From a virus: 64,000 bases of DNA. The translations under genes and the position numbers were made by a program. Below, piece by piece: positions 18,619-37,459 of the stretch; position 1 is the stretch's first letter; the number at the start of each line of letters is the position of its first letter. The notes under the pieces were generated by a model. The model was not told the DNA's origin. It worked only from the letters and a program-made list of their open reading frames with translations, and made no database searches. The stretch lies in the IMG/VR virus record IMGVR_UViG_3300005573_001166, positions 32,001 to 96,000 of that record; one strand, 5' to 3'.

Positions 18619-20619
18619 TTGAGTGATACAATTATAGTTAGGAACTTAGAGGAAGAGTTCAGAAAGAGTAGGCGGTTTCATCAAATAAAAACTGCTGCCT
18701 CTCAAGAAGGGTCTGGGGGGGTAAACTATTCTTATCTTGCTCCAGGTTTGTTTAGGGAGCCCCCTACAGTAGACGCTCCTTATTCTAGACGGGTAGGTGT
18801 AGTATCTGGTATAGGTAGTAGATCTGTAGAGTCAGACAATCTTACAAATGTAGAAAAACGGGCTATTATGAAGAGTGCTAGTCATATACTGTATACAGAT
18901 CCTGAAATGTATGGGCCCCTCTTTGATCCTATTAACTGGTATCTGCCTTATACATATAAAGTATTGAATAGATGGATTAGGTATTGGGATAGGTTTGATC
19001 CTTGGATAGGCAATGCCATTGATATGCACAGTGAAATCCCCTTATCGCGGTTTACGTTAACCGGGGTAGAGGATGAGGCTATTCAGAGGGAATATGAGGA
19101 TATAGTAGATCAATTAGAGTTATATCAAAGATTATTAGAGATTACAAGAGAGTATTGGCTTTTAGGGGAGGCATTTCCTTTTGCTCATTGGAATGAGGGA
19201 TGGTTAGCTTATGATCAGTTGTCTTTACTTAATCCTGATTATGTACATGTACGCTCTTCCCCGTTAGTGCATGGGAATATGATACAGTTTGAATTAGAAC
19301 CTGACGACGCCACCCTTTCACTTGTTAAGAGTAGCGATCCTGCCGACTTAGAGGTAAGGGAGCTATTAGATCCTGTTGTAATACAAGCAGTAGAAACAGG
19401 AACAAATATACCTCTATCTAGTTTCAACGTTTCCCATATAGCTCGTAAAGCGTCTCCTTATGATTTGAGAGGTACAAGTATTGTATTAAGATGTTTGAAA
19501 GATATGCTTTATATGGATAAGGTAAGAGAGGCGCAGATGGCAATCGCAGATAGACTTATCGTTCCTTTGCAGATATTTAAGTTGGGAGACCCGAAGGGAG
19601 AGTGGTTGCCGTCTCAAGCTCAGCTGGATGAGTTTGCAGAACTGTTAGCATCAGGAAGAGATGACCCTAATTTTGCTATTGTAAGTCATTATGGGTTACA
19701 GGTAGAATATGTAGGTGCTACAGGCAAAATTATACCTACAACACCCGAATTTGATTTTGTCCGCGATAGAATTTTAGCTGCTCTGTTTACCAACAGAGCT
19801 ATGATGGACGGTTCCGGACCTACATATGCAAATGCATCTGTTGCTTTTGAAGTACTGCAGCTGAGGTATATGTCGCTTAGAGGCCTATTAGAGATGTGGG
19901 TCAAACAGAAAATATTTAAACCTATTGCACAAGCGAGAGGTTACTACACCAAATCCTCTAAATCCCGTACTAAGCAGCTAGTAGTTCCGGACATTAAGTG
20001 GCTGGAGAAGATAAGATTGTTAGATGATGTGCAAATGAAGAGATTCCTACTACAGCTTCGTATGAGAATGGAAGTGCCTTTAAGTACCATATGTGACATT
20101 TTTGACCTTGACTATGAAACTCTTAAAAAAGACTTAGCTAACGAGCTTGGAACTGTAGCAGACCCTGTTTGGAGGCAAGCTATGAGCAAGGAAATAGCAT
20201 TAAGTGCTTCCGCTCCAACTCCTCAACCCTCCTTCGCTATGCCCGGTATTGCTCCAGGTATGGGTATGCCTTTTGGGGAGATGTTTCCCGGTGCTACAGG
20301 GCCTAGTGCCAGAGAGGTTGCCCCTGAGGGAGGTGTTTCTCCTGGAGGTCCAGAGCTTCCAGGTTTACAGCCCGAGATGATAGGGCCTGGTGCAGGAGTG
20401 GAGGCTAGTAAAAAACCTTCTAATTCGGAGGAATTAGCTAATCTTATAGCATATAGGGAGGCTTTAGAGAGAAAACATGTAGAAGCTGTAAAGAAGATAG
20501 AAGAAGAGGTCAAGTCAAATGGGAAAATGTACCGTAGGGTGTTTGGTGTAGCTAGAAACGATAATAAACACGGAGTCAAAAGAATGGGGGATTCTTTTTA
20601 TGTAGTAGATAGAGGTTAA
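18619..20619 (+). CDS. portal protein
   Basis: typical size and position; EYWLLGEAF, LLNPDYV, HIARKASPYDLRGTSIVLR, QLRYMSLR; Pro/Gly-rich C-terminal tail. Confidence 0.85.
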   Translation: MSDTIIVRNLEEEFRKSRRFHQIKTAASQEGSGGVNYSYLAPGLFREPPTVDAPYSRRVGVVSGIGSRSVESDNLTNVEKRAIMKSASHILYTDPEMYGPLFDPINWYLPYTYKVLNRWIRYWDRFDPWIGNAIDMHSEIPLSRFTLTGVEDEAIQREYEDIVDQLELYQRLLEITREYWLLGEAFPFAHWNEGWLAYDQLSLLNPDYVHVRSSPLVHGNMIQFELEPDDATLSLVKSSDPADLEVRELLDPVVIQAVETGTNIPLSSFNVSHIARKASPYDLRGTSIVLRCLKDMLYMDKVREAQMAIADRLIVPLQIFKLGDPKGEWLPSQAQLDEFAELLASGRDDPNFAIVSHYGLQVEYVGATGKIIPTTPEFDFVRDRILAALFTNRAMMDGSGPTYANASVAFEVLQLRYMSLRGLLEMWVKQKIFKPIAQARGYYTKSSKSRTKQLVVPDIKWLEKIRLLDDVQMKRFLLQLRMRMEVPLSTICDIFDLDYETLKKDLANELGTVADPVWRQAMSKEIALSASAPTPQPSFAMPGIAPGMGMPFGEMFPGATGPSAREVAPEGGVSPGGPELPGLQPEMIGPGAGVEASKKPSNSEELANLIAYREALERKHVEAVKKIEEEVKSNGKMYRRVFGVARNDNKHGVKRMGDSFYVVDRG

Positions 20620-21030: not shown

Positions 21031-24000
21031 ATGCTGTCCAATCCTGTGAAAATGCAGTGGGATTATAATGAATGGATGCAGCTTGTTAATTTTCTCAGGC
21101 CTCTTAGAAAGGCGGGAATAAGCCAGGTTTTTGATAAAGAGGATCCTTTAGTTAGCCTACTGCAAGAATATAAAAGAACTAATAAAATGAAAACTGCAGG
21201 TTCTTATGAGGACTTACTAGCTGCTGTAGAAGGAAAACTACTTATTGCGTCCATTAAAATAGACGGTGTATTGACTTGTATAGGTTACAAAGATGGAAAG
21301 GCTAAATTAGTAACATTGGAAGGTAGGATTATTACTGATTTGCCTGTTACAGATGAAATAGAACATATTTTAGAAGGAAAAGAAGAAACTATTTTTATAG
21401 GCGAGTTGTATGGGGTTGATTTGGCAGGTAAAGAACTTCCTTTTAACAAAACACTTTCGCTTGTACGAAAACCTGAGAGTGAAGCAGATGAAAAAAGAAT
21501 AAGGGTGGCTGTTTTTGATGTTCTTAAATACGATGGTAAGGATGTATCCCAACTTCCCTACGCACAAAGGTGTCCTATTATAGAAGATGTGTTTGGTTCA
21601 GGTGCGTATATTACTCCTGTTTATACTAAAGAAGGGGACGAGAGTACGGTTGCAGCGTTGTGGAAGCAAAAAGTACTTAAAGAAGGAAGAGAAGGGATTG
21701 TTGTCAGAACGGACGGAACTTATAAACTTAAACCTGTACAAACAGCCGATTTAGCTGTAATAGGGATGGAAATATCAGATAGGCACCCGAATTGGGCAGG
21801 AGCTTTGTTATTAGCAGCTGTAGATAACGATGGTATCTTTTTAGATGCAGGTAAAGTAGGAACCGGCTTAACTCTAAAAGACAGAAGAGACTGGTTTAAA
21901 AAGATAATGGATAAAAAGGTAGTACAAATAGGTAACAAGGTTTTTGTAGACCCCTATGCTTTTGATACCGTAGTCGAGGTAAAATATAAAGGGGTTAACT
22001 TGGAAGGAAGGAATGCTTGGGAGTTTACAGCAGGTAAGCTTGTACCTATAGGTAAAAGGCGTTTTACGGCTTTAAGGCATCCAAGCCTGGTAAGGGTTAG
22101 AGAAGATAAGCATGTAGAGCATTCAGACGTATCCGATGAGCAGATACCTGAAGTGCGTAAGGGATCCCTTACAAGAAAAGCATACGTACCTACCAAAAAA
22201 GAGAGATTGCGTAATAGAGTATACGAGGGCTCTATAGTAGCAGAAGATTATGGCAAGCAGCTTGCTGATTTTACATTAAAGAGGATAGCTTTAGAAGAGG
22301 CGCAGTTAAATGAGGGAACTTTAGATATAATATGGAGTAAATATAACGTACCTCTTAATTATTACGTAACTACAAAGACAAGGGACAAAAACTACTTTCC
22401 TTCTACCTTAGACCAAAATACGTTCTCAGAACTTGCTCCAATAGCCAGAGACGCTTATGCAAGATATCTAAGATTCGGAACAAAGTTAACAGACTATGAT
22501 AAAAAGTTAGCTAAGGAGTTAAGTAAGTATGTTAATATACCCCACCAAGACGATGTCGATGAGTCATATTATTTTGCAGTGCTCAATGCTTGGAACAAAA
22601 AGTATATAAATCCTTTAATGAGTTATACTATTTGGGAGTACTGGGATGAAGCATCCTCTATACCTGTTTCCACTTCACCTCAAGAGTATATAGAGCAAAT
22701 GAAAAATAATTTGGCACTTTCAGAGAAACTAGATGATATAAATAATTCGCAGGCTTTATGGGAACAGCAATTTGCTACTGTTAAAAAAGTAGAGGATGAC
22801 CGAGGGGAGTTAGTGTATGAAACTACAACTCCTAATAACGTGTCTACTGTATATGGATATCTAGCTCCTCAAAGAAGATTCAGGATTCTGTTGTACTACC
22901 TAACTAATACCCAGAGGCCAAACGCTGTCGTTATGGCGGGGTACCTACATACGTTAAAAAGTATGGGTGTTCTTATACCCGAGAACACAGAGTTGCCTGT
23001 TCCTGTAGAAGTAGCAGACAAAGAAGTAAAAACTTTTGAGGAATTAGTAGACGTGGTAGTGGATAGAGGCATACTTTCCAATCAAGAAAGAACAGATCTC
23101 CTAGCTCTATATCAAAGTTTAGACAAAAGAGAAGAAGATGCATTAGACTTTGAAAAAGCGCTTGTACCTTATGTTAGAACGGTTATTACGGAAGAAGATG
23201 AGATAGAGACTGAAATGGCATCTGTAGAACCTGTAGAAGTTACTCCTGAAACAGAAGCAAGAGATCTAGTAAGAACGTACTGGCAAATGAGTGAATTTGG
23301 TAGTCCTCTTCTTATTACTATTGGCTCGGAGTCTCCTATATTAGAATTGGATACTCCAGTTGTTTTTAATAGAAAGAAAAGAGGAAATTTTGCAGAGTTA
23401 GCTAATGCCCTCGTTTTTACAGATAGGTTGCATAGAAACATGGGCAACATTATACTTATAAACCCTCTACTAGGCAGCGATTTCAAAATAGAACCGATCA
23501 CAGAGGAGGGGTTGAGGCAACTTAGCCATGTATATGAAGGAATGTGGTGGGAAACTGAAGGAAAGGAGTTAAAGGGGGTAGGGGATGTTGGAGAGTTTGC
23601 TCGTTATTATTTTGAAGAGGATTTAGGTGCTGTTAAGAACGCGTCGGATATGTTAAAGAGTATAGAGGAATATATACAAAACTCTCCTGGAACTGTATTG
23701 GTCTATTATAAGGAGTCAGGTGTGTTAGATAGGGTTGACACTTTTACAGGTGCTTTAAGTGTACTAGCTGCCGACTACCCAGGAGTTTATTTTGCAAGGA
23801 CGCCTGAGTTAACTACAGAGTATGTTGTGTATGCCAATTTACCTTCTCCAATAGAAGAACAAATACTTGAAGGAAGGGGCGTTCCCAACCTTTCCGAAGT
23901 ACAACAAGCTTTGAGCATTGCAACCCCTTTACAGATAGAAGAGGTACCTGAAGAGCCTGAACAACCTACTCCTGAACAACCTACTCCTGAACAACCTACT

Positions 24001-26421
24001 CCTGAACAACCTACTTCTGAACAACCTACTCCTGAAGAGCCTGAAGAAAAGTTGGGTATGAGGCTACCAGACAACGAGTCAGATTTTCTTAAACTTCTCT
24101 ATGCTTTAGATATACCAAAGTTGTACGAAGAAGAGGAAGGCATACCCCCAGAGGAAAAACAGTTGGAAGATGTACCTGAACCTGAAATACATGAACAACC
24201 TGCTCCTGAGGTGCCTACACAACCTGAACTTGAGCCTCAGATGTTCGAGCCTAACGAATTTCCTGAAGGGGCGATACATATACCGGACTCTTTAGATAGA
24301 GAAAAGGTATTGGCGGATGAGGAGGTAGAAAATTTGGAAGGTAGTCTTCCAGGTTACCTAGATGCTTTATTCGCTCATCCGGAATACAGGTTTGAAGTTG
24401 AAGGTAAAAGGGTATGGGATCTTACTATAAAGCTCAGATCTTATAATGTAAGTAGAAAAGAATATATAAAGAGTGTAGTATACTCTATTTTAGAGGAGAG
24501 GGCTCCAGGTCAGGACTTTAATATTCGCATATTACCAAAAGACATAGACGATCAGTTAGCTTCTGATGAGAAAGCTGTTACACCTGTTTTTGTAGCAACG
24601 GTGCCTCCAAAGAAAGAAAAAGAGGAAGCGGAACCTCCTGTTTTTCCTTCAGTATCAGAATCAGAGTTTCTCAGTAATGTAACTGCCTCTACACTTACAG
24701 AGGTATTAAGTAGTATACTTACTGCTTTAAATATACCTGTAACTATTTCTCCCACTATAATTGCTCCACCAGACGAAATTGTAAGCAACCGTTTTACGGC
24801 TATTTCAAATATAATGAGAGATCTATTTGAAAAAGAGCCTGATTTGTATAGCATAGTAGTCGACCTAACTGCAGAAAAGTTTGGGTTGACAGGCGAGGAG
24901 GTAGACGAGTACATTCGCAACCTCCTTAACATAAAGGTACTTACACTAGTACCCAGAGATCTTGTACCTGAAGATGCAGATCATACAGGGGAAGAAGGTA
25001 CTTTTCTTCCAAAAGTTTACCTTTCAGATACAGCCTCAGAGTTGTTAGCAACCAGGCGTAGAATAGATAATATGAAAGATGCTTTAAATGATGCGATAGG
25101 GAAGGCAGAGGGGCAGAAAATAACTATATCTTTACCTTATTACGATAGAGATATATACGAAGCAGCGCTCAAAGAGGTTCAGATACCGAAGGGCGTAACT
25201 ATAGTACCTCAATGGACTAATACAGAAAATGATTGGCATTTTGAAGTGTCTTATGCAATGCCTAGAGAATTAGGTACAGCTCCTAGAAACTCGATCCCAT
25301 CTCGCAGATTTTTCAAGATCATACCTGAAGTAGAGGAGGTAGAGTTTCCTATCGATGCTTTAGTAAAGACTATACAAAAAACCGACAAGCGGCCTTTACT
25401 TATTTATGTAAATCAAGCCGATTATGAAGCAGTTAGAGACATGTCGAATCAAGTAGGAGAGTTAGCGAACGATCCTGGCATATTTATAGCGATGGATAAT
25501 TCAATAGATCCTATAGACAATAATAGAAGGTTTGAGGTTAAAGTGCTTCCTAAGAGTACATCTTTATACTTTCCATATAAAAATGCATGGGAACCAACAG
25601 ACGTCTCTATACAGGATAAACTGGAAGAGCAATATGATCGTAATGTACAACGTTTACACGAAATAGAAGGACAGCAAACGCCCGCTCTTGTTAATATGCT
25701 GTCGACAGAAAAGGTAATGGATCTAAATAAGGCCGTAACAGGACCTATAGCGTCGTTTAAAGGTTATAGTAGACAGATTCCTTTAAACTTACAAATGACT
25801 TTTAATAACAACGGTATAGAAATCTCGCCTTTTGCTAAGCTATACCGTTTAGAGGAAAACGTTTACTATGTTACTGATCCAGCTTTAATAAGGGAAAAGG
25901 AAGGAGAGGCTTTTATAATTAAGGTAGATCCTAACTCTAAAACATCAGAAGTTTACAAAGCATCAGATGAATTTACCTCATTTACAGATGTATACAAATT
26001 TCGTCAGGGCATGCAGGAAGCATATAACTACTGTACATCTAGTACTCCATCTCCTGAACAAGTTGTACGTTATTGGTTGCAGGAAGAGGTACATAAAGCA
26101 TCATATCCGGAGCAACTCGGCTGGCTAAGAATGATGCATTTATTTGGCTTTCCTGTTAAATACAGAGTTAAGGGCATTCGTCCTTCTTCAACATCTTACA
26201 AAGCGTTAGGAATATCTGATGCGGTTTCTTTTATGTCTCGATATACTGCAGGTGTGCAACCTAATGCAGAAGAAATAAAAGCTCAAATTGCAACGTTACA
26301 AGAAGACATACCTGAAGAACTTCGCAGTGTATACGAGACAGGCTGGGTAGAGGGTTTAATGCAGTATGGTTATCCTGTAGATGATCTAGGTGTAAAAGGA
26401 TTCCCTATATTATCGCTTTAA
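21031..26421 (+). CDS. 1796-aa polyprotein-like protein with an N-terminal ATP-dependent DNA ligase module (~21199-22182)
   Basis: motif I SIKIDG, FIGELY, VAVFDVL, EGIVVR, KLKP, then OB-domain GKVGTG, EVKY, LRHP..REDK; remainder unrecognised. Confidence 0.9.
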   Translation: MLSNPVKMQWDYNEWMQLVNFLRPLRKAGISQVFDKEDPLVSLLQEYKRTNKMKTAGSYEDLLAAVEGKLLIASIKIDGVLTCIGYKDGKAKLVTLEGRIITDLPVTDEIEHILEGKEETIFIGELYGVDLAGKELPFNKTLSLVRKPESEADEKRIRVAVFDVLKYDGKDVSQLPYAQRCPIIEDVFGSGAYITPVYTKEGDESTVAALWKQKVLKEGREGIVVRTDGTYKLKPVQTADLAVIGMEISDRHPNWAGALLLAAVDNDGIFLDAGKVGTGLTLKDRRDWFKKIMDKKVVQIGNKVFVDPYAFDTVVEVKYKGVNLEGRNAWEFTAGKLVPIGKRRFTALRHPSLVRVREDKHVEHSDVSDEQIPEVRKGSLTRKAYVPTKKERLRNRVYEGSIVAEDYGKQLADFTLKRIALEEAQLNEGTLDIIWSKYNVPLNYYVTTKTRDKNYFPSTLDQNTFSELAPIARDAYARYLRFGTKLTDYDKKLAKELSKYVNIPHQDDVDESYYFAVLNAWNKKYINPLMSYTIWEYWDEASSIPVSTSPQEYIEQMKNNLALSEKLDDINNSQALWEQQFATVKKVEDDRGELVYETTTPNNVSTVYGYLAPQRRFRILLYYLTNTQRPNAVVMAGYLHTLKSMGVLIPENTELPVPVEVADKEVKTFEELVDVVVDRGILSNQERTDLLALYQSLDKREEDALDFEKALVPYVRTVITEEDEIETEMASVEPVEVTPETEARDLVRTYWQMSEFGSPLLITIGSESPILELDTPVVFNRKKRGNFAELANALVFTDRLHRNMGNIILINPLLGSDFKIEPITEEGLRQLSHVYEGMWWETEGKELKGVGDVGEFARYYFEEDLGAVKNASDMLKSIEEYIQNSPGTVLVYYKESGVLDRVDTFTGALSVLAADYPGVYFARTPELTTEYVVYANLPSPIEEQILEGRGVPNLSEVQQALSIATPLQIEEVPEEPEQPTPEQPTPEQPTPEQPTSEQPTPEEPEEKLGMRLPDNESDFLKLLYALDIPKLYEEEEGIPPEEKQLEDVPEPEIHEQPAPEVPTQPELEPQMFEPNEFPEGAIHIPDSLDREKVLADEEVENLEGSLPGYLDALFAHPEYRFEVEGKRVWDLTIKLRSYNVSRKEYIKSVVYSILEERAPGQDFNIRILPKDIDDQLASDEKAVTPVFVATVPPKKEKEEAEPPVFPSVSESEFLSNVTASTLTEVLSSILTALNIPVTISPTIIAPPDEIVSNRFTAISNIMRDLFEKEPDLYSIVVDLTAEKFGLTGEEVDEYIRNLLNIKVLTLVPRDLVPEDADHTGEEGTFLPKVYLSDTASELLATRRRIDNMKDALNDAIGKAEGQKITISLPYYDRDIYEAALKEVQIPKGVTIVPQWTNTENDWHFEVSYAMPRELGTAPRNSIPSRRFFKIIPEVEEVEFPIDALVKTIQKTDKRPLLIYVNQADYEAVRDMSNQVGELANDPGIFIAMDNSIDPIDNNRRFEVKVLPKSTSLYFPYKNAWEPTDVSIQDKLEEQYDRNVQRLHEIEGQQTPALVNMLSTEKVMDLNKAVTGPIASFKGYSRQIPLNLQMTFNNNGIEISPFAKLYRLEENVYYVTDPALIREKEGEAFIIKVDPNSKTSEVYKASDEFTSFTDVYKFRQGMQEAYNYCTSSTPSPEQVVRYWLQEEVHKASYPEQLGWLRMMHLFGFPVKYRVKGIRPSSTSYKALGISDAVSFMSRYTAGVQPNAEEIKAQIATLQEDIPEELRSVYETGWVEGLMQYGYPVDDLGVKGFPILSL
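23956..24030 (+). repeat. 15-bp tandem repeat x5 (PEQPT linker)
   Basis: cctgaacaacctact x5, one copy tctgaac. Confidence 0.95.
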
Positions 26422-26437
26422 AAAAGCCGGAAAGGAC

Positions 26438-29400
26438 TTGCAGAGTAAAATGACTACAGCTGATTTTATACAACTTTTAAGACAAGCAGACGAAAGCAAT
26501 CCTATACAACCCGACGAACCTAATGACGACATATGGGAGGCGATAACCGAGTTTGTTCCTCTGCCTCCTGATGTCATTGAAGGGGCAGGGGCAGACTTAG
26601 TACAGAAGGTTGTATCTGCATATAAACAATTACAAGAGTCAGATTCTCCGGAAAAAGAGAGCTATTTGCAAGAAATATTAAACGATTTCTTAAATCAATA
26701 CCAAGAGTTACCCCCCGATCAACAGCAAATTGCAGAAGATGTACTAAAAGAATATCAGGGTGACTATCCTGAGATCGTCCCTGCTTTCAATCAAGCTCTT
26801 ACTGATTTTATAAAGCAGATGCAGCCGATAGAGCAACCAGTACAGCCGGTGCAGCAAGTACAGCAAGTACAGCAAGAACAGCCTATACAACCTGAGATGC
26901 CTGCTGTAGTAAGAACTTACAGTACTAACATTTTAAATGCATTAAGTCAGTTAGAGGAGAAGAATCCTGAACAAATTAGAGACATTCTGGCTAACAAGCT
27001 CAACGATATCTTCAATCATGCTCTTAGAGAGGAAGAGAGGCAAGAGTACTTCCAAATCTATACAGACATAATGAACAATGTATTAGCCAACTTTCCTGAT
27101 TTACAGAATCAAGTGGACGTGGGTCAAATATGGAATGGGGAGTTGGAAGTCAGAGAGAAGGGCTTGCAATTAGCAGGAGATTTGGCCGCTTCTTTAAAAG
27201 AGGGATTGAAAGCAGGAGGCACAGCGTACGACTTACAATCTATTATACTAGATAAGCTGATGCCTTTAATAGAGGAGTACAGTAAAGGCGATGAAAAGCA
27301 AAAGCGTGAGATATTATCGGCATATAATGCACTACGTTATGCCTTTCCTTCTGTTTACGGCGATGCTGTAACAGCTAAAACACTCACATCTGTTATTGAA
27401 AACATTTGGAAAGAAGGGCAAGAATGGTTATCTCCTACCCCTTGGGTGAACATTATAAAATCGCAAATAGGGGCGGAGGATCTTGTAAACTATGATAGAA
27501 TAGTAAACATATTTGAACGAAATGCAACCAGATTCCTAAAAAGTAATTTACCCTTTCTACGTACCCCTGAACAGCGTAAAGCTTTTATAGACTCTTTTTT
27601 AAACAGTGTCAGTACTACTCCGTATATAAGAGATCTAGTTAAAGAGGAGTTATATGATTGGTTGGATGATTTAGAAAGAGAAAAACCTGAACCTGGAACA
27701 CCTGAATACGATGCTGCTGAAGGTTTAGGAGGATTAAAGCAAGATGCTTTAGGTAGGGCCTCAGAGTACACAGCCATACCTGCTAGATTCGATAAAGCAT
27801 TTATTTCATTTTTAAGTCAGTTGCCTAGGCAAGTTGATGTAGATACAGCAGCTAACGAGTACAAAGAAAGGTGGCTTTCTGCGTTAGAGGAGGCTATACC
27901 TACTGAAAACACGACAGCTGCTACCTACAATAAAGCAGTTTTGAATTGGTTACAGAAACAGATAGACAATGTTTATAATAAGCGCCTTTCAGAATACAAA
28001 CAGAGGCCTGAAACAGTAACTCCTGCTTGGTATGGTGCTTTAGCTGTAGGCAGTTTCGAGAAAGATGCTTTTGGAGACGTAACTACAAAACCTGAGGTTG
28101 TTGCAGATAGGTTTGAAAAAGGATTGACTGCTTATTGGAACGAGTTTACTAGAGAGCAAAGAGATGAATACTATAATGCTTTTGTAAATCAGTTGAAAAG
28201 TGAATTAGGAGAGGCAGCACAAGGTTACGTTAAAGAGGTAGACAAAAGGTATGAAGAGTTAAAACGGAGTAAAGGTACGGGAAAAGTTATAGGTCCTACC
28301 GATCCGACTATAAGAGCGATTGAGGGTTACATAGATAAGGGAAACTTTCCCGGATTAGCAAGTTTTTGGATCCGCTATGATGCTTCTAATGCATCTCCTC
28401 AAGAGAAACAACAAGTTTGGGATACTATTGTAGGGCACTCATTAGTAGATAGTATAAATACTAATATGGAGGCTCTAATGAATCAGTTAGATGCGGGAGA
28501 AGTCCCTGACGAGATAAAAGACATTATAAACACGAATGCAGTAAAAGTAGATGATGCACAGGTTGTTGGTAAAGAGGGCAACCAGTGGAAAGTATTAGTT
28601 AAATCAGGAGACAGTGAGTATCTTTTTAATATAAGGTTTGAGCTCTACAAAGGAAACGAGCAGATAGGAATACATTATAGTGATATAGATACTGCTGATT
28701 TTGTTAGAAGGGAATATTATAGAAATAAAGTTGTAAACAAAGTATTTAGTGAATTAGCAGATAAAGACCCCGAAACTTGGCAGGGGGAAGATTGGTATGC
28801 TTTTGGTGATCAGTTAGTAGGTTTAATTAAGAAAAGCTACGAAGGTTCTAAAAAGTCAGAAGACTTTATAAACAAACTAACTGCTCAACAACTGGTCGCA
28901 CTTACTAGAAACATGCCTAAAGATGCATATACAACTTTTGTAGGTTATCTACCTCCAGAGATAGCTGCTTATATGCCTTATAGATCTAGTACTTTAACAT
29001 CTTTACTTTTCGAGTGGTTGGATAGGAAAGGTACAGCCGCCTCTAGAGCAGAGATAGAGAAGAGAATGAGAGCAGGTACTACGCCAACTCCGCCTCCTTC
29101 CACACAACCTCCTCCTACAGCAGGTACTCCACCTTCTACACAACCTCCTGCAACAGGTACTCCACCTTCTACACAACCTCCTGCAACAGGTACTCCACCT
29201 TCTACACAACCTCCTGTAAAAGGTACTATAGAAGTTAAGTATGATGATGAAAAAGGGTACGTTCTTGATTTAAGCAAAAAGGACGAGCTTATACTGAAAG
29301 ACGGTAGGACGGTTACTCCTCTTTCTACTTATGTAGATCCTCTCGGGTTTTTATTGGTAGCAGATGAAAACGGTAATAGGGATGTTATAAATTTGAAAGA

Positions 29401-31669
29401 TATTGAACATGTCTTGAAAAAAGGGAAGAGGTACTACTCCTTAGAGATGCCACAGACTCTTCCTGACTACGTAACATCAGCTAAAAATGTACTAAGTAAT
29501 CCGGAGGAGTTCAGTAGGTTTGATCCTGACACTCAGAACCAAATAATAGATATATTAATTGATAATATCGCTTTAAAACTGTTTTCGAAGTTAAATGTTG
29601 ACGAATTAAAAGGATTAAGAGACATGTATAAAAACCGAAACTGGACGGGCTTTTATGATTTCTTTGATAGTAAAATAAACGAGGTTGTTAAAAGGGATCC
29701 TGAATATGCTGAATTAGATAAGTTGCTAAAGGGGTTGCCTATATTCCCTTCAGATATCGGCGATCGAGTAGTTGAGTATATAAAGAAGATGGGTATACCT
29801 AAGAAAGGGAGTATCGTTACAGCTCAAGAGTACTACTCGTCTTATCCTGAAGGCATGGGAGCAGAGCTTTCACCTAACATATTTACTTCTAGGTCTCCTG
29901 TGTTGTTTCCTTACAAAGCAGGGGAGGAATGTACGTTAGAGGAGTTGGACTTTCCGATTGTAGCTCATTACTTAAATCAAGTTGCTTCTGATAACTATGG
30001 TATAGAAAACTTTACTCAAAAAGTTTCTGAAGGGGAGAATCGTAAAACCATTTGCTTTGTATACAATTCAACCTTTCCGCACGCTAAATGGGTAGATGAT
30101 CAGCATTTACATGTTAACTTATATCGTGTTAAAGACTTAGCTGATTTATTAGGAGTATTGGTACACGAGTTTAGGCATGTACTTACTGTAATGACAAATG
30201 AACCCTCTTCCGACTTACAAGAAAGAGTAAATGCATCTCCTTCCGAGTATGTAAAGCTGCCTGAGGAAAATATTGCTTTTCCAGAGATGATATCTTTTAT
30301 GCTTTATACTTTAAGACTGCCAAAAGATGTGGTAAGGGATAAGATTATATCGATTATAGGAGAGGAGAACACGTATAAAGTAGATGAGTGGTTTAAGCAA
30401 TTAGGAATAGAGAAAAGTGCTGGATTTCCCAGTCACCCTAAGAATATCGTAATACCGAGAAATGAGTATTACCCTAAAGGTTTAACAGAGGAAGACGTTT
30501 GGAATTATTACAACAGTGTTAGAAATAAGATACTTCCTTATCTAAAGGGCCAGCCCGTAATGCTTGTACTAAATGCAGATGGAGAAGTTTACAAGAGGCA
30601 TGATAAAGATCCCGAGTCTTTTATAGATATAAATACTGAGAAGGAGTTCGACCGATTTAATAACGGTAGGGTTTTGGAGTTTCATAAGGTATTAGAGGAT
30701 ACTTCAAACTATGGTTTTGTAGATGTTGATCCTAGAGAAGACGTTCCTTTTGACAAAGTAAAAGAAGTAACAGGAATGCTTTACGACTTACTTTCGTCAC
30801 TACCTGAAGTCGAAGAGGTAGATTTAATATACTCAGGCGGTAGGGGTTTCCATCTGTACCCTAAATATAGGAGCTACAAAGACGTCGATGGGTTAAGGAG
30901 AGAGTTAAGAGACATACTTGAAGCTTTTGCAAACAGCGTGGACGCTAACTTAACTACCCACCGAACCACCAGTAGCGATCAAATAAGGTTGGATGTATCT
31001 ACTTTAAAGAGTACAGGCTCACTTAGGGCAGTATATTCGTTAAACGGGAGAACAGGTTTGAGGTGCATACCTGTCTCCAGAAGAGATTTAGATGACTTCG
31101 AGAAAGAGGATGCTAAAATAAAGACGGGTATAAAGACAGCCCAGGATACAGGTCAAGGGGTTTTTGTACCTACTACCTCTGAGAGTTTAGGAGAATATAC
31201 TTCCTCTATACAAGAGGTCTTACTTATGGCTATATCAGATGAGTGCCATGCTATAGCAACTTACAGTGCTATGATAGATGCATTACCTGAGGACGATACT
31301 AACAGGTCTATTTTAGAAGAGCTTAAGTTTGATGAACAAGTTCACGAACGAGTTCTATTAAGGATGTTAGGACGTGAGTTGCCGATAAAAGAGACTCCTA
31401 TAGCAGAAGAAACTTTGCCTCCTGTTCGGTTTAGACCTGACTACAATGATTTAGAGGAAAGAGGTAAGTTCTTTGCCAAGTTTATAGACCTTGTATCTGT
31501 AGCAATAGCAGACGAGAGGCATGCTATATCATTCTACGATACTATATTGGACGGTATGAATGTAACAGATCCGAATTATAGAGTCATAGAGAAGATAATG
31601 AGGGATGAACAGGATCATGAGAGAAAACTGCTTAACATGCTAGGAGAGGAAGTTCCCACCTTGGATTAA
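26438..31669 (+). CDS. 1743-aa polyprotein-like protein: helical N-terminal region, zincin HExxH module, LigD-type AEP polymerase module (~30422-31141), ferritin-like module
   Basis: VHEFRH..PEE; HPKNIVIP..EDVWNYY..ILPYLKGQP, EFH, FVDVDP, SGGRGFHLY, SLRAVYSL; DECHA..DEQVH and DERHA..DEQDH. Confidence 0.88.
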   Translation: MQSKMTTADFIQLLRQADESNPIQPDEPNDDIWEAITEFVPLPPDVIEGAGADLVQKVVSAYKQLQESDSPEKESYLQEILNDFLNQYQELPPDQQQIAEDVLKEYQGDYPEIVPAFNQALTDFIKQMQPIEQPVQPVQQVQQVQQEQPIQPEMPAVVRTYSTNILNALSQLEEKNPEQIRDILANKLNDIFNHALREEERQEYFQIYTDIMNNVLANFPDLQNQVDVGQIWNGELEVREKGLQLAGDLAASLKEGLKAGGTAYDLQSIILDKLMPLIEEYSKGDEKQKREILSAYNALRYAFPSVYGDAVTAKTLTSVIENIWKEGQEWLSPTPWVNIIKSQIGAEDLVNYDRIVNIFERNATRFLKSNLPFLRTPEQRKAFIDSFLNSVSTTPYIRDLVKEELYDWLDDLEREKPEPGTPEYDAAEGLGGLKQDALGRASEYTAIPARFDKAFISFLSQLPRQVDVDTAANEYKERWLSALEEAIPTENTTAATYNKAVLNWLQKQIDNVYNKRLSEYKQRPETVTPAWYGALAVGSFEKDAFGDVTTKPEVVADRFEKGLTAYWNEFTREQRDEYYNAFVNQLKSELGEAAQGYVKEVDKRYEELKRSKGTGKVIGPTDPTIRAIEGYIDKGNFPGLASFWIRYDASNASPQEKQQVWDTIVGHSLVDSINTNMEALMNQLDAGEVPDEIKDIINTNAVKVDDAQVVGKEGNQWKVLVKSGDSEYLFNIRFELYKGNEQIGIHYSDIDTADFVRREYYRNKVVNKVFSELADKDPETWQGEDWYAFGDQLVGLIKKSYEGSKKSEDFINKLTAQQLVALTRNMPKDAYTTFVGYLPPEIAAYMPYRSSTLTSLLFEWLDRKGTAASRAEIEKRMRAGTTPTPPPSTQPPPTAGTPPSTQPPATGTPPSTQPPATGTPPSTQPPVKGTIEVKYDDEKGYVLDLSKKDELILKDGRTVTPLSTYVDPLGFLLVADENGNRDVINLKDIEHVLKKGKRYYSLEMPQTLPDYVTSAKNVLSNPEEFSRFDPDTQNQIIDILIDNIALKLFSKLNVDELKGLRDMYKNRNWTGFYDFFDSKINEVVKRDPEYAELDKLLKGLPIFPSDIGDRVVEYIKKMGIPKKGSIVTAQEYYSSYPEGMGAELSPNIFTSRSPVLFPYKAGEECTLEELDFPIVAHYLNQVASDNYGIENFTQKVSEGENRKTICFVYNSTFPHAKWVDDQHLHVNLYRVKDLADLLGVLVHEFRHVLTVMTNEPSSDLQERVNASPSEYVKLPEENIAFPEMISFMLYTLRLPKDVVRDKIISIIGEENTYKVDEWFKQLGIEKSAGFPSHPKNIVIPRNEYYPKGLTEEDVWNYYNSVRNKILPYLKGQPVMLVLNADGEVYKRHDKDPESFIDINTEKEFDRFNNGRVLEFHKVLEDTSNYGFVDVDPREDVPFDKVKEVTGMLYDLLSSLPEVEEVDLIYSGGRGFHLYPKYRSYKDVDGLRRELRDILEAFANSVDANLTTHRTTSSDQIRLDVSTLKSTGSLRAVYSLNGRTGLRCIPVSRRDLDDFEKEDAKIKTGIKTAQDTGQGVFVPTTSESLGEYTSSIQEVLLMAISDECHAIATYSAMIDALPEDDTNRSILEELKFDEQVHERVLLRMLGRELPIKETPIAEETLPPVRFRPDYNDLEERGKFFAKFIDLVSVAIADERHAISFYDTILDGMNVTDPNYRVIEKIMRDEQDHERKLLNMLGEEVPTLD
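29093..29216 (+). repeat. 33-bp tandem repeat, about 4 copies (TPPSTQPPATG linker)
   Basis: actccaccttctacacaacctcctgcaacaggt units. Confidence 0.9.
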
Positions 31670-31770
31670 AACCCCCTTATTCCCCTTTTTACCCAATTGT
31701 TTGACTTTGGAATATGTAATTACATACCAGAGCCCATGAAAGTGGTTTATAGGGGGTTTTAGGCTGTTTT
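31667..31770 (+). promoter_or_regulatory. dispersed intergenic element (related copies at ~3425-3521 and ~60848-60902)
   Basis: GTAATTACATACC-N9-GAAAG-N3-TTTATAGGGGGTTTTAGGCYGTTTT; TAAAACCCCC/GGGGGTTTTA inverted repeat. Confidence 0.6.
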
Positions 31771-31785
31771 TCAAAGGAGGTTTTA

Positions 31786-31863
31786 ATGGCTGTAGCTAAA
31801 AAGAAGTCTAATCCGAAAAAAAGGAAACGCAAAATTCTTAAGCGTATGCAGAGAGGTTATTAG
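31786..31863 (+). CDS. 25-aa basic micro-protein (not in ORF track)
   Basis: AAAGGAGG SD then MAVAKKKSNPKKRKRKILKRMQRGY*. Confidence 0.55.
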   Translation: MAVAKKKSNPKKRKRKILKRMQRGY

Positions 31864-31867
31864 TATT

Positions 31868-33655
31868 ATGGAGGGCGGAGTAAAAATGACTGGTTTAGCG
31901 GTTAAGATGAAGGTAGCGGTAACTGATTTTAAGAAGCAGTACCTGTTTGACTTTTATGGCACAGCCTTCCTGCCTATTACTCAGCCTCCTGGAAGAATGG
32001 GAGATATATTAGGGTGGTTGTCTGATGATCTTGTATACGACATTTTATGTACTAAGGTAGCTTCTACAGTAAAACTAGCTAAAACGTATTTAGACATTAC
32101 TCCTAGTCTTATATATCAGGAGTATGAAAACAACATTGCAGCTGTGAAGCTTGAACCTCTGAAATATTTTGATAGGTTAGGAGTTAAAGGTATTACAAAT
32201 TTGGAGTTCTTGCAGAACATAAAGCAGTATAAGAAACAGGCAGAAGATTATTTAAACAACCTTATAGACAGCTTTAGACCTGAAATAAGTAGTTATTTAA
32301 AAGAATTGCAACGCGTACTTGAGGAACTTGAAGACCTTCCAGAACATTCTCCTGTATCTGATCAAGTGCTTGAGTTTCTATCCAATCCTCCCAAAGTTAC
32401 GTTTCCAGAGCTAGTCCGTCTGTTTAGGGAGTTTAAATGGGAACCTCTTTTTGGTGGCGAGTTATGGGCTCAGATTGCAGAAGCTACTATAAGGTTAGAA
32501 GACTATTATAAAAAGGTAGTACCTACTGACGATCCTATTGAGAGTATAGGACCGATAGTTGAGAGGTATGTTAGAGATCCTAAAGATTTGAATAACCTGG
32601 CAGTTGCCTTAGACTTATACAATTCTTTGGAGCATAATACTGGTAGTTTATTCAAGGATGTAACTCCTGAGATGCCTTACTGGTTAACGTTAGTTGCTTC
32701 TGGTACATATCAACCGGAAATCCTATCTAAAATGAGTCCGAAGGTAAGGCAAATAGTTAGTGCTTATTATAGGGAAGTAGGGCCTCCAGAGTCTAGGAAA
32801 CAGTTTATTGATAGTTTTGTAACACAGGTTCTTCGCAGGCGACTTCCCAAAGGTAAGCTTCCAGGTCCTGCTATACTGCTTCATATAGATGAAAGTTTGG
32901 CAGGAGACGTATATGAGCGTTTAAAATATGAGATACAAAAAAGTGATCCGGTAAAAGATTCGGAGAAGCTTCAGGATTATATGGTTCTATTAGAGGATTT
33001 AGTATCGTCTAGTGCTTGGCAAGATTATGAGGAGAAACAGTTAAAACAATTACAACCTACTCCAGATGGTATAAAACATTTTATGCAAGAGATGGGAGTA
33101 TTTTATACATTTAAACATGCGCTTCCTTCCTATTTGTTAGAAAGTGTTAATCGGGAAGTTATAGCAAAGTTCTTTCAGGGGGTTACAGAGCCTGAAATAT
33201 TTCAGGCAACTTGCAAGGCAATGCCTTTAGACTTTTTAGCTACATATTTTGATACGGCACAAGGAGATAGGTTTGACACGGCAACACAGATACTTTTTGA
33301 AAGAGCAATTGCAGAGGGGGAAATAAGTTACTTGTTAAATAATTTATATGCTGAGACTGCTCCTATTCTATTAAACTTACTAACGACGCCTAAAGGGGGA
33401 TTACTTATTTTAAAGTTAGAGACTACAGATGAACTCGACTCTCTTGTAGACACGATTGTAGAGAAATATAAGTCCGGTTTAATTCCGGAACAAACTGCAA
33501 TGCAATTACTACAGATATTAGGCAAATTTCCAGATTCAGAGCCGTCTCTAGAACCTGCGGAGCCTCCCTTAGAACCTACAGAACCGTCTTTAGAATCTGC
33601 AGAGATGGTAGAACAACCTTCTGAACAGGAGGAAAGGAATGAGCAAATTGTTTAA
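31868..33655 (+). CDS. protein of unknown function, paralog of the C-terminal module of 33639..35987
   Basis: LFDFYG.AFLPIT and GGELWAQIAE...LEHNTGSLF shared with the next gene. Confidence 0.8.
   Translation: MEGGVKMTGLAVKMKVAVTDFKKQYLFDFYGTAFLPITQPPGRMGDILGWLSDDLVYDILCTKVASTVKLAKTYLDITPSLIYQEYENNIAAVKLEPLKYFDRLGVKGITNLEFLQNIKQYKKQAEDYLNNLIDSFRPEISSYLKELQRVLEELEDLPEHSPVSDQVLEFLSNPPKVTFPELVRLFREFKWEPLFGGELWAQIAEATIRLEDYYKKVVPTDDPIESIGPIVERYVRDPKDLNNLAVALDLYNSLEHNTGSLFKDVTPEMPYWLTLVASGTYQPEILSKMSPKVRQIVSAYYREVGPPESRKQFIDSFVTQVLRRRLPKGKLPGPAILLHIDESLAGDVYERLKYEIQKSDPVKDSEKLQDYMVLLEDLVSSSAWQDYEEKQLKQLQPTPDGIKHFMQEMGVFYTFKHALPSYLLESVNREVIAKFFQGVTEPEIFQATCKAMPLDFLATYFDTAQGDRFDTATQILFERAIAEGEISYLLNNLYAETAPILLNLLTTPKGGLLILKLETTDELDSLVDTIVEKYKSGLIPEQTAMQLLQILGKFPDSEPSLEPAEPPLEPTEPSLESAEMVEQPSEQEERNEQIV
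32456..32806 (+). repeat. 351-bp near-identical direct repeat, copy 1 (copy 2 at 34833-35183)
   Basis: ungapped alignment at offset 2377 with scattered substitutions. Confidence 0.95.
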
Positions 33656-35987
33656 ATTTGATCCTAATTCTACTACAAACGAGGGAAGATGGAGGCTTAT
33701 AGATCCTAAAGTTTTCGCACCTAATTCTATGCGAAGTTGGTACTCTTGGCAGGGTATACAGGCACCCGGTATTAGGTTTATAGTAGGTATAGACAACAGG
33801 GACAAGAAGTGGAAACCCCAAGCAATTCGCTTTGACAAAAAGTTGTGGACGGAGGAGAAGGCAGCAGCTTGGTGGCAGAAGCATAAAGACAGGTTTGTTA
33901 AAGAGTGGCAACCTTCCGACTGGCAGACTAATATAAAAACAGCTAAAACAAGTAAATTCGTTATACAAGAACATGATGCAACTAGAGCAGGGAAGCATTT
34001 TGATTTAAGGTTTGAAAGAGGGAATGTAGCTAAATCTTTTGCTGTACCCAAGCACACGATGCCGAGTACAGGAGAAAAAGTACTTGCAATCCAAGTCCAA
34101 GATCACCCAGTTAGTTTTATGAAGTGGGAAGGTACCGTACCTGAAGGCACCTATGGAGCAGGAAATATACGTATATTTGACCAAGGAGAGTATCGTATCA
34201 ATAGGTGGACAGATGATGTAATAGACGTCACTTTTGAAGGGAACAAGATAAAAGGTAGGTATGTTTTTATACATACAGGGGATGCTAAATGGTTGATTAC
34301 TAAACCTAAGAAGCAGATTGTAACTGCAGCTTTTACAGATGTACGTACTAAATTATTTGATTTCTACGGAGTAGCTTTTCTACCCATCACAGAGCGGTCT
34401 GAAGGTGTGAGTATTAAAGACTGGTTATCAGATAGCCTTACTTACGATGCCGTGACTCTTAAAGTCTCTTCTGTAATAAAACTAGCTAAAACATATTTAG
34501 ATGAAGTTCCTACATTTATATACGACGAACTTCTCCACTGTACCGATGCCCTGGGTTGGAGGCCTGTGTTGTATTTACAGAAAGTTGGCTACGATCCTGA
34601 AAATCCTAAGCATAGGGAGAATGTTAACGAGTTTATGGAGAAAGCAGACTATATGATAAATCGTCTTGTAAATAGTTTTAGTCCTGAAACAAGAGATCTC
34701 TTAAAGGAATTAAGGGAGTACGTTCTGCGACTAGAAGGCTCTGCTTCTGCTTTTTACTCTAGAATACGCAGCATCCCGTTGCCTGAAGCAATACGTATAT
34801 TTAGGGAGTTTGTGTGGCGCCCGTACTATGGCGGCGAGTTGTGGGCTCAGATTGCAGAAGCTACTATAAGGTTAGGAGATTATTATAAAAAGGTAGTACC
34901 TACTGACGATCCTGTTGAGAGTATAGGACCGATAGTTGAGAGGTATGTTAGAGATCCTAAAGATTTGAATAACCTGGCAGTTGCCTTAGACTTATACGAT
35001 TCTTTGGAGCATAATACTGGTAGTTTATTCAGGTATTCAGCCCCAGAGATGCCTTACTGGTTAACATTAGTTGCTTCTGGTACATATCAACCGGAAATCT
35101 TATCTAAAATGAGTTCGAAGGTAAGGCAAATAGTTAGTGCTTATTATAGGGAAGTAGGGCCTCCAGAGTCTAGGAAACAGTTTGTCGATAATTTTATAGG
35201 TATTGCAGCTGAGAAAGCAACTGTACTAGGAAAAGTTACAGATGCCTCTTTAGCGGGAGATTTATACAAATATTTGAAAGATAATATAAAAGGGGCAGAT
35301 ACTATGAAAGCTATTGTGTTTTCTAAAGGATGGAGAGATTACGAGTTGCAATACTTCAAGCAATTGGAACCTAACTCTGAGGGCATTGAGGAATTTAGTC
35401 AGGAATTACATTTCCTTAAGAAGTTAGTACCAAATGATTTTACGTCTCTATTTTCTAACCTGTTGGGTGTAGCAGAAGTACCGGTAATTGAGGCTTTGTT
35501 TGAGGAAGAGTCTACAGATACTAATCTATTTGTAGAAACGTGTTATAAACTTCCACTGGATTGTTTATTCAATCATCTTGATAAGGTCACTGGAAGCAAG
35601 TTTTACAGAGGTGTATTCGTATTGTTTCAGAGGGCGATTTCTGAAGATTACTTAAACTATATACCAAGTTACTTGAATACTGAGACTGCTCCTGTACTGT
35701 CTACAGTCATTAATTTTGTTCCTGAGTTAGGCCCAGGCAAATTGAAGTTAATGGATATTGTTCTTAAAAAGTTTCAGCAACAGGATTTAACAGCAGAAGC
35801 AGCTAATGATCTACTGCAAAGTTTAGGATACGAGGAGACAGTAGAGCAAATGTTGTCTTCAGAACAACCAGATACAAATTCTGTACAAGAAGCTCCTTTA
35901 GCTACAGATTCTGTTCAGACTGAAGAACCAATAGAAAACGAAACTAAGGTGTCTGAAGAAACGGAACTTCAGATGGAGGAGTATTAA
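33639..35987 (+). CDS. 782-aa polyprotein-like protein with a LigD 3'-phosphoesterase (PE) module (~33945-34328)
   Basis: FVIQEHDATRAGKHFDLRFE, SFAVPK, LAIQVQDHP, WEGTVPEGTYGAG, IFDQG, GNKIKGRY, WLI. Confidence 0.9.
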   Translation: MSKLFKFDPNSTTNEGRWRLIDPKVFAPNSMRSWYSWQGIQAPGIRFIVGIDNRDKKWKPQAIRFDKKLWTEEKAAAWWQKHKDRFVKEWQPSDWQTNIKTAKTSKFVIQEHDATRAGKHFDLRFERGNVAKSFAVPKHTMPSTGEKVLAIQVQDHPVSFMKWEGTVPEGTYGAGNIRIFDQGEYRINRWTDDVIDVTFEGNKIKGRYVFIHTGDAKWLITKPKKQIVTAAFTDVRTKLFDFYGVAFLPITERSEGVSIKDWLSDSLTYDAVTLKVSSVIKLAKTYLDEVPTFIYDELLHCTDALGWRPVLYLQKVGYDPENPKHRENVNEFMEKADYMINRLVNSFSPETRDLLKELREYVLRLEGSASAFYSRIRSIPLPEAIRIFREFVWRPYYGGELWAQIAEATIRLGDYYKKVVPTDDPVESIGPIVERYVRDPKDLNNLAVALDLYDSLEHNTGSLFRYSAPEMPYWLTLVASGTYQPEILSKMSSKVRQIVSAYYREVGPPESRKQFVDNFIGIAAEKATVLGKVTDASLAGDLYKYLKDNIKGADTMKAIVFSKGWRDYELQYFKQLEPNSEGIEEFSQELHFLKKLVPNDFTSLFSNLLGVAEVPVIEALFEEESTDTNLFVETCYKLPLDCLFNHLDKVTGSKFYRGVFVLFQRAISEDYLNYIPSYLNTETAPVLSTVINFVPELGPGKLKLMDIVLKKFQQQDLTAEAANDLLQSLGYEETVEQMLSSEQPDTNSVQEAPLATDSVQTEEPIENETKVSEETELQMEEY
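34833..35183 (+). repeat. 351-bp near-identical direct repeat, copy 2
   Basis: see copy 1. Confidence 0.95.
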
Positions 35988-35990
35988 GAA

Positions 35991-36245
35991 ATGAGACTAC
36001 CTGAGACAGAAGAAGATTTTCTTAAATATTTAAAGTTTATATACTTACCTTACAGAAAAGCAGAACTTGACGAATCGGAGCTTCCAATTACCTATGATAT
36101 AACACAATGTGCTTGGTGTAAAAGGTATGTAGATAAACAGACCCGACAATATGTAGACAAACCGGAAGGAGTACAAGTAGTATCCCACGGCATATGCCCT
36201 GAATGCAAAAAGAAGTTATTAGAAGAAGCTTCTAAGCTTTTTTGA
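35991..36245 (+). CDS. small Zn-finger protein
   Basis: CAWC...SHGICPEC; GGAGG SD. Confidence 0.75.
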   Translation: MRLPETEEDFLKYLKFIYLPYRKAELDESELPITYDITQCAWCKRYVDKQTRQYVDKPEGVQVVSHGICPECKKKLLEEASKLF

Positions 36246-37186: not shown

Positions 37187-37187
37187 A

Positions 37188-37448
37188 ATGATTATACACA
37201 ACTTAACTTCACAGGATCTTTCTTTTAATATAGACTCAGGTATAGGTGTAGACTTAAAAGGACAGCAGTTCAGAACAGTTATTGCTGCCGGTAGTAGTGC
37301 TACTATATCAAATGCAATGATGTTCCTTTTAATGTTGAACCCGGAATTTCAATCGGCATATGCCAACGGCAACATATCTGTAACATATGACACTGGTGAT
37401 GCTACTTTCTTCGGTAGGATACAAAGCTTACTAGGCGGAACTTTATAA
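37188..37448 (+). CDS. small protein, divergent member of the paralog family
   Basis: MIIHNLTSQD...SAYANGNISV; GAGGAG SD. Confidence 0.65.
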   Translation: MIIHNLTSQDLSFNIDSGIGVDLKGQQFRTVIAAGSSATISNAMMFLLMLNPEFQSAYANGNISVTYDTGDATFFGRIQSLLGGTL

Positions 37449-37459
37449 GGAGAGTATGA

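Follow-up and report, generated by a model that had tools for sequence, protein, structure and literature searches.

DNA ligase, LigD-type polymerase and LigD 3'-phosphoesterase domains in giant proteins of the head gene block of an uncultured phage

The window analysed here is a stretch of 64,000 nucleotides, bases 32001-96000 of the linear virus record IMGVR_UViG_3300005573_001166 (159,386 bp, completeness estimated at about 90%). All large open reading frames (ORFs) of the window are on the + strand, and four of them, P0001 (1796 amino acids, aa), P0002 (1743 aa), P0003 (595 aa) and P0004 (782 aa), fill positions 21031-35987. P0001 contains an ATP-dependent DNA ligase, P0002 a LigD-type polymerase, and P0004 a LigD 3'-phosphoesterase (PE), and all three genes lie between the genes of the portal protein and the head maturation protease. 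The same three activities are found in bacterial LigD, whose POL, PE and LIG domains work with Ku in non-homologous end joining (NHEJ), for example in Pseudomonas and Mycobacterium (PMC8656161). The four proteins and their domains, with positions in the window, are:

21031..26421, + strand: P0001, a giant protein of 1796 aa, with a conserved N-terminal leader of about 50 aa, the ligase core, and then about 1400 aa without assigned function; cysteine (Cys) content 0.17%
21196..22110, + strand: nucleotidyltransferase and oligonucleotide-binding (OB) domains of the ligase (PF01068, PF04679; phrog_114, E 5e-29)
26438..31669, + strand: P0002, a giant protein of 1743 aa, with about 1100 aa without assigned function, an HExxH domain, the LigD-type polymerase and a tandem ferritin-like domain; Cys 0.23%
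29903..30415, + strand: HExxH zincin-like metallopeptidase-type domain, aa ~1156-1326, with HEFRH at 1243-1247, just upstream of the polymerase
30491..31144, + strand: LigD-type archaeo-eukaryotic primase (AEP)-polymerase domain, aa 1352-1569 (PF21686)
31214..31639, + strand: rubrerythrin/ferritin-like domain made of two tandem repeats, aa 1593-1734 (PF02915, E 5e-9)
31868..33655, + strand: P0003, 595 aa, paralogous to the last 550 aa of P0004; Cys 0.34%
33639..35987, + strand: P0004, 782 aa, with a BRX-like domain, the LigD 3'-phosphoesterase and a P0003-like C-terminal region; Cys 0.38%
33651..33926, + strand: BRX-like domain, aa 5-96 (weak match to Pfam BRX; AlphaFold2 (AF2) model with pLDDT 92)
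33966..34271, + strand: LigD 3'-phosphoesterase, aa 110-211 (PF13298, LigD_N)

A Pfam profile search confirmed the three modules at the places given to them in a preliminary description of this DNA (ligase at 21199-22182, polymerase at 30422-31141, PE at 33945-34328); the matches to the ligase, LigD_Prim-Pol, rubrerythrin-type and LigD_N families are all above the gathering cut-offs. In P0001, DNA_ligase_A_M (PF01068) covers aa 56-232 (E 6e-16) and DNA_ligase_A_C (PF04679) covers aa 254-360 (E 8e-9). Alignment to the archaeal ligases 4eq5 and 2cfm recovers motif I (KIDG, with K76), motifs III, IIIa and IV, motif V (KLK, 232-234) and motif VI (R..DK, 355-360). The NCBIfam model of NHEJ ligases (TIGR02779, NHEJ_ligase_lig) gives 58 bits against a cut-off of 228, and archaeal ligase models do at least as well; the ligase of P0001 is a generic ATP-dependent core, no nearer to LigD ligases than to archaeal ones. 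When P0001 was compared with GenBank phages by tblastn, the matches were to ordinary phage ligases only.

The polymerase of P0002 matches LigD_Prim-Pol (PF21686) with E 5e-15 and 56 bits, the cut-off being 27. Aligned to LigD-Pol of M. tuberculosis (2iru), it retains the DVD motif at 1429-1431 (D1429 and D1431), SGGRGFH at 1466-1472 (H1472), and D1519. LigD models are the nearest ones in NCBIfam, with the equivalog cut-off missed (TIGR02778, 42 bits against 215). A tblastn search of GenBank phages with P0002 found nothing.

The phosphoesterase of P0004 matches its Pfam family (PF13298, E 1e-26, 93.5 bits against a cut-off of 31) and the archaeal PE structures 3p4h (E 4e-27) and 3p43 (E 2e-25); with TIGR02777 it reaches 110 bits, short of the cut-off of 144. 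The catalytic residues of the family, in Pseudomonas numbering, are His42, His48, Asp50, Arg52, His84 and Tyr88. Five of the six are kept in P0004 (H112, H120, D122, R124 and H156), and the equivalent of Tyr88 is F160. The enzyme identities proposed earlier are thus supported, and by structure alignments the catalytic motifs are intact in the ligase, in the polymerase and in PE apart from this tyrosine. A region-limited homolog search with the PE domain returned cellular-type LigD/PE proteins only, and tblastn of the domain against GenBank phages found nothing. The complete LigD set announced in the preliminary description is present in this phage in the sense that it has the domains of all three activities, with the qualifications that the ligase is generic and not specifically of the LigD type, and that PE has Phe at one essential position.

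The place of these genes is defined by the following neighbours:

9471-11450, + strand: weak terminase-like protein (PHROG match)
18619..20619, + strand: portal protein, 666 aa (phrog_16240, E 1e-63); Cys 0.30%
38141..42715, + strand: 1524-aa protein, an N-terminal head maturation protease with a long extension (phrog_18299, E 1e-16)
47749..48738, + strand: major capsid protein, 329 aa (phrog_2522, E 7e-45), 35% identical to gp27 of phage G; Cys 0%

According to PHROG and BLAST-type matches, the order is portal, P0001, P0002, P0003, P0004, several small conserved genes, the protease fusion, and the major capsid protein. The nearest cultured relative, as judged by the portal, is Bacillus phage G, with 38% identity to its gp14 portal; the head maturation protease, which occupies aa 34-217 (nt 38240-38791) of the 1524-aa protein, is likewise 38% identical to gp19 of phage G. 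The phage is thus distant kin of Bacillus phage G. The core order portal-protease-capsid is common to the two; the interval between portal and protease contains only small genes in phage G and spans about 17.5 kb here. The location of the modules between the portal and the protease and capsid genes, proposed earlier, is borne out by these PHROG matches and phage G homologs.

When IMG/VR was scanned for the portal and for P0004, no close relative came up. More distant relatives keep much of the arrangement. Nine giant orthologs start with the ligase (P0011-P0019; 1639-2498 aa, 36-57% identical over the ligase part), and in at least seven metagenomic relatives the giant ligase and polymerase proteins come just after the portal, sometimes fused to each other. 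Wherever the context could be read (L003, L005/L006, L007/L008, plus two contigs without DNA), a portal-sized gene is followed by a few small genes, the giant ligase protein, and then the polymerase; the portal is confirmed by BLAST in L005, L006 and L007 (48-80% identity). The polymerase is part of the next giant protein in L005 and L007, and is fused to the ligase in P0014, P0015, P0018, P0019 and the compact, 698-aa P0008, the large fusions being 2434-2498 aa long. Synteny extends downstream in L004 and L007, with homologs of P0024, of an 86-aa ORF, of P0025, and of the protease fusion. Linkage of the domains to the head module in relatives, set beforehand as a test of the idea, was therefore found for the ligase and the polymerase. 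It was not found for PE, which is in none of the DNA stretches and proteins of the relatives examined; the slot after the BRX-like domain, taken by PE here, is taken by an HNH nuclease there. Among these relatives, the complete LigD set appears to be a feature of this phage.

A separate observation concerns a more distant lineage, in which a 2623-aa BRX-ligase-polymerase protein is encoded between genes for a trypsin-like protease and a ClpP/crotonase-like protein (L013, 462-10436); this may be another head-module placement.

The reading that we favour, with confidence only a little better than even, is that P0001, P0002 and P0004 are head-delivered cargo of the polyvalent type, which would together act as a Ku-less kit for the healing, filling and sealing of broken incoming DNA. 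Its starting points, the domain identities, the active-site motifs, the gene position with its conservation, and the virion-like composition, were established directly. The composition is best seen in the content of Cys. Every protein of at least 200 aa from the portal through the capsid protein has less than 0.5% Cys, and P0001-P0004 together have 12 Cys in 4916 aa where about 75 would be expected, the rest of the proteome being at 1.53% (about six-fold depletion, Poisson p 2e-19). The orthologous giants have 0-0.3%. Terminase, a head-module protein that is generally absent from mature virions, has 1.37%, and the replication and sugar enzymes, together with terminase, range over 1-4%.

The second indication comes from the domains that accompany the enzymes. 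The HExxH domain of P0002 has HEFxH invariant across seven orthologs, and the AF2 model built on the ortholog alignment has a core pLDDT of about 90. Most of the VIA-align matches listed for this model are zincin metallopeptidases, with modest Z of 5-6.7; the neighbours include aminopeptidases, BepA, neprilysin, selecase, SprT/Wss1 and thermolysin. A feature-based search of ESM Atlas gave LPD23 and SprT-like as the nearest named clusters, but all of its scores lay below 0.9 and are to be taken just as leads.

The BRX-like domain of P0004 scores 20 bits with Pfam BRX (PF08381; cut-off 24.5), and relatives of it reach 29 bits. The best PDB match of its AF2 model is the BRX domain of plant RLD2 (6l0v; probability 0.99, TM-score 0.64 by target, but E 0.05), a structure crystallised with a bound CCL motif of LZY3. 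Among viral models, the best matches are phage proteins of about 470 aa, one of them named prohead protease, and structure matches in ESM Atlas include Peptidase_S78 and protease-capsid fusions. An exhaustive profile search found the domain in 180 cluster representatives at E<=1e-3, either on its own (90-125 aa) or as part of proteins as long as 3043 aa. In 39 large members its Pfam partners are LigD_Prim-Pol (6), ATP ligase (4) and Phage_Mu_F (2), as well as 2H phosphoesterases, rubrerythrin/EncFtn-like domains, InPase, SLT, NAD ligase, Acb1, GNAT and NUDIX; poly(A)/CCA-type polymerases and HD domains are further modules of the BRX-domain relatives. Among 148 BRX-like representatives, phmmer detects a LigD-type polymerase in about 14, which include two-domain BRX-Pol proteins of 331-357 aa. 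The BRX-like domain is a promiscuous phage module, for which no description of a phage role was found in the literature searched.

The company of MuF, InPase, 2H, SLT and a zincin-like peptidase, whether in the protein itself or in its relatives, appears to be that of polyvalent proteins. For these, a zincin metallopeptidase is the hallmark processing domain, and they are predicted, and in the cases of P1 Dar/Ddr and the N4 virion RNA polymerase (vRNAP) known, to travel with the DNA (PMC5512222).

Some of the same partners raise the question of whether DNA is the substrate at all. The proteins might repair RNA, such as tRNAs that anticodon nucleases of the host have cleaved, or might be an offensive or priming device, with the polymerase acting as a primase on the incoming genome. 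LigD polymerase prefers ribonucleoside triphosphates and PE resects 3'-ribonucleotides (PMC3300020), the polyvalent proteins of conjugative elements are known to include primases that are transferred (PMC5512222), and the 2H, poly(A)/CCA-type polymerase and HD domains of the BRX-domain relatives would suit work on RNA. The ligase, however, has the nucleotidyltransferase and OB core of DNA ligases, complete with motif VI, and matches DNA ligases best, and the combination of ligase, LigD-type polymerase and PE is a set for joining DNA ends. We regard a role in RNA repair, offence or priming as highly improbable.

The third indication, which would bear on processing of head-delivered cargo, is a short motif. 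K-T-A-[AGSQKDE] occurs 9 times in the portal-to-capsid block (18619-47580), against 3 times in the remaining 82% of the proteome (p 2e-5). The sites in the block are at the portal N-terminus, just before the ligase, at the junction of the polymerase and the ferritin-like domain, at the BRX/PE junction, in P0025, and in the protease fusion, whose long extension holds four K-T-A-[A/G] sites, with a segment GPGKSG-x-KKTAA found twice (aa 881 and 1010). The site between the polymerase and the ferritin-like domain corresponds to a gene boundary in L007, and K-x-A flanks the BRX domain in orthologs. This enrichment at module boundaries is suggestive, and no more, of processing by the head protease, in which case the motif would be a candidate cleavage code.

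The ferritin-like domain, fused in P0002 here, is a separate 191-aa gene in L007. In NCBIfam it comes nearest to encapsulin ferritin-like cargo families, while staying under the cut-off (EncB_fam, E 1e-7), and it possibly connects the cargo of phage heads with that of encapsulins. EncFtn-like matches are also seen among the BRX-domain relatives.

These features could also be looked at as signs that the proteins are packaged and do their work inside the assembling or filled head, sealing nicks and trimming or filling ends, or serving mainly as internal scaffold or inner-body material in which the enzymes are passengers. The genes sit with protease and scaffold-type genes, the composition is virion-like, non-enzymatic regions are large, and the ferritin-like domain resembling encapsulin cargo hints at life in the capsid interior. 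Yet the ligase and the polymerase need ATP and nucleoside or deoxynucleoside triphosphates, which would be unlikely to be available in a sealed capsid, and the HNH, 2H, SLT and NUDIX partners of the relatives would fit the host cell better; we judge action within the head to be distinctly unlikely.

From the domain company, the Cys composition and the K-T-A motif, all of them indirect, we infer that P0001, P0002 and P0004 are probably packaged in the virion. The earlier suggestion that these are virion proteins gains support to the same extent, from the Cys depletion, the zincin-like HExxH domain, and the BRX-like domain, which polyvalent proteins and prohead proteases also have.

A number of observations weigh against head-delivered repair cargo. 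Cys depletion is a correlation, and low Cys is seen in some cellular LigD/PE proteins too. The K-T-A motif was chosen after inspection of the data; as a strict cleavage site before the ligase it was rejected, since the orthologs have K-T-[L/I] there, and it was kept as a statistical enrichment only. The HExxH region of the seven orthologs matches no Pfam family even at E 5, and Foldseek matches of its model in PDB are not significant (E>=0.1), to be read along with the modest Z mentioned above. The PE has Phe160 at an essential position: mutation of Tyr88 inactivates the PE of Pseudomonas LigD (PaeLigD; PMC8656161), and PE activity may therefore be altered here. As for the joining of ends, the 159-kb record yielded no candidate for Ku (PF02735) or Mu Gam (PF07352), extending the earlier statement that the window has no Ku; the absence is not absolute, as the record is about 90% complete. 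Judging by bacterial LigD, efficient double-strand end joining is doubtful without Ku or Gam.

Other points of the same kind would speak for proteins that are not packaged at all and work in the cytoplasm in replication, recombination or concatemer processing (sealing of Okazaki fragments, gap filling, end repair), the late or head-region location being incidental. P0001 is the sole DNA ligase found in the about 90% complete record, no NAD ligase having been found in it, so that a role in replication is possible, and P0002 has the sole LigD-type polymerase. No MuF domain was found in the genome. The non-enzymatic parts, about 70% of the giant proteins, have no match in GenBank phages and no likeness to known virion proteins of cultured phages. 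Against incidental location stand the post-portal position kept in several divergent relatives, the fusion of the enzymes to more than 1000 aa of extra sequence, the Cys content, which is like that of portal and capsid and not the 1-4% of replication and sugar enzymes and terminase, and the BRX-like, zincin-like, MuF, SLT and InPase company typical of head-delivered polyvalent proteins (PMC5512222). On this balance we hold a purely cytoplasmic role to be unlikely, though less so than the two alternatives discussed above.

If the proteins are delivered from the head, events might proceed as follows. The giant modular proteins would be built into the procapsid next to the portal, and possibly be cut into modules by the head protease or by the HExxH domain, at boundaries marked by a K-x-A type motif. 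The modules would leave the capsid together with the genome. The kit, consisting of the ATP-dependent DNA ligase, the LigD-type primase-polymerase and, in this phage only, the LigD 3'-phosphoesterase, would then act on the incoming phage DNA, sealing nicks and gaps, cleaning 3'-blocked ends, and joining or circularising ends, including those made by host nucleases. Processing, ejection and substrate in this scheme are, like packaging, what we infer. The lack of Ku argues against classical NHEJ, and repair of nicks, gaps and dirty ends, or joining of ends held by the kit proteins themselves, seems more plausible.

Comparison with bacterial LigD shows both the kinship and the distance. The three predicted activities are the same, PE and POL are members of LigD families at the Pfam level, and metal- and nucleotide-binding residues are kept. 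Bacterial LigD is one protein of 650-900 aa, whereas here the modules are distributed over three phage proteins of 1796, 1743 and 782 aa, with genes inside the virion head module and with no Ku or Gam found in the record. All NCBIfam equivalog cut-offs are missed, the ligase is generic, and PE has Phe in place of Tyr88.

Resemblance to the polyvalent proteins surveyed by Iyer et al. in 2017 is of another sort. In both cases very large multi-enzyme proteins are encoded near head-morphogenesis genes and have a zincin-like domain (here a putative one, with a modest fold match). P0002 would combine zincin-like, polymerase and ferritin-like domains, P0004 a BRX-like domain with PE, and the orthologs ligase with polymerase, and BRX-domain relatives carry MuF, InPase, 2H, SLT and GNAT. 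Unlike typical polyvalent proteins, those described here have no match to MuF or to Pfam MPTase-PolyVal, and the cargo is spread over three proteins. In the 2017 survey, Primpol is found only in proteins of conjugative elements, and DNA ligase, LigD and PE modules are not mentioned (PMC5512222). Within the literature searched, ligase, LigD-type polymerase and PE as cargo are what is new here relative to known polyvalent proteins; a LigD-type repair set carried by virions was not described in that literature, which included a 2021 jumbo-phage survey and an AEP survey.

There are two further parallels. Mycobacteriophages Corndog and Omega reportedly encode Ku and use host LigD for genome circularisation (Pitcher et al., 2006). 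NHEJ-type chemistry on the phage's own incoming linear genome, as proposed here, would be similar, but with the contributions reversed: Corndog and Omega bring Ku and borrow LigD from the host, and in the present case the enzymatic parts come without Ku. Ku of Corndog and Omega is not known to be part of a head-module giant protein. The internal proteins IPI-III of T4 and the inner-body proteins of phiKZ are located inside the capsid or ejected from it and are processed by the head protease, and T4 IPI* and P1 DarB protect entering DNA. In those systems, as here, the genes are found by the portal, protease and capsid, and a short repeated boundary motif may be the protease code. Differences are that no homology to these proteins was found, that the K-T-A motif is statistical only, and that the predicted cargo consists of repair enzymes and not of nuclease inhibitors or methylases. 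Phages inject various proteins that protect DNA, i.e., nuclease inhibitors, methylases, RNA polymerases and end-binding proteins; an injected set for DNA repair, made of a ligase, a fill-in polymerase and an end cleaner, is not known to have been reported.

A wider proposal, possible but doubtful in our estimate, is that a clade of uncultured large phages, distantly akin to phage G, packs giant polyproteins into its capsids. These would be cut at K-x-A by the head protease to set the enzymes free, with the BRX-like domain as an adaptor for capsid targeting or docking, and a Ku-independent end-joining and repair machinery, with PE or HNH, would be injected along with the genome and would circularise it, or reseal nuclease cuts in it, before phage expression. 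A capsid-loaded and injected repair machine, if it exists, would protect against restriction, CRISPR and RecBCD-type attack by means of proteins made in advance, and would be a new principle of counter-defence, whereby the cut is repaired instead of being prevented. For some large phages whose genome ends are unusual, it could account for circularisation in the absence of host NHEJ, and it would be a source of compact Ku-independent end-joining enzymes naturally suited to survival outside of the cell. The BRX-like module and the K-x-A boundary motif could provide a testable code for loading of foreign cargo into capsids.

P0003, the fourth protein of the region, is 45% identical to aa 228-770 of P0004. 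Within a core of 300 nt (32400-32699 and 34777-35076) the two genes are 89% identical in DNA, to be explained either by gene conversion or by a strongly constrained core.

The remaining genes of the head block are:

35991..36245, + strand: P0026, a small protein of 84 aa with CxxC...CxxC; relatives have this module inside the BRX-domain protein
36539..38128, + strand: P0024 (215 aa), an 86-aa ORF and P0025 (222 aa, with HEAAH), syntenic with L004 and L007
42734..46642, + strand: 1302-aa head-block protein, Cys 0.08%, with weak PHROG matches only, to minor-head/tail proteins

Family searches with P0024, the 86-aa ORF and P0025 gave no match. P0025 (37460-38128), just upstream of the protease fusion, has HEAAH, kept as HEVGH in the ortholog from L004, and is a possible second metallopeptidase of the head block. 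A free-standing HNH endonuclease of 92 aa is encoded at 46642-46920, between the genes of the 1302-aa protein and the capsid (phrog_2255, E 5e-20). The Cys-poor genes of the head module have two Cys-rich exceptions, a 270-aa protein before the portal (17787-18599, 5.9% Cys) and P0026 inside the block. In L007 (1-2883), the portal ortholog is interrupted by about 460 aa, possibly an intein, at a point where the portal of the window has neighbouring residues.

In a scan for promoters and terminators, the counts were no better than chance as evidence of operons, apart from one perfect promoter. The latter has the sigma-70 consensus (TTGACA, 17 nt, TATAAT) and is located at 36304-36332 (+) in the gap between P0026 and P0024, which suggests that the host is a bacterium and that transcription also starts separately within the head block.

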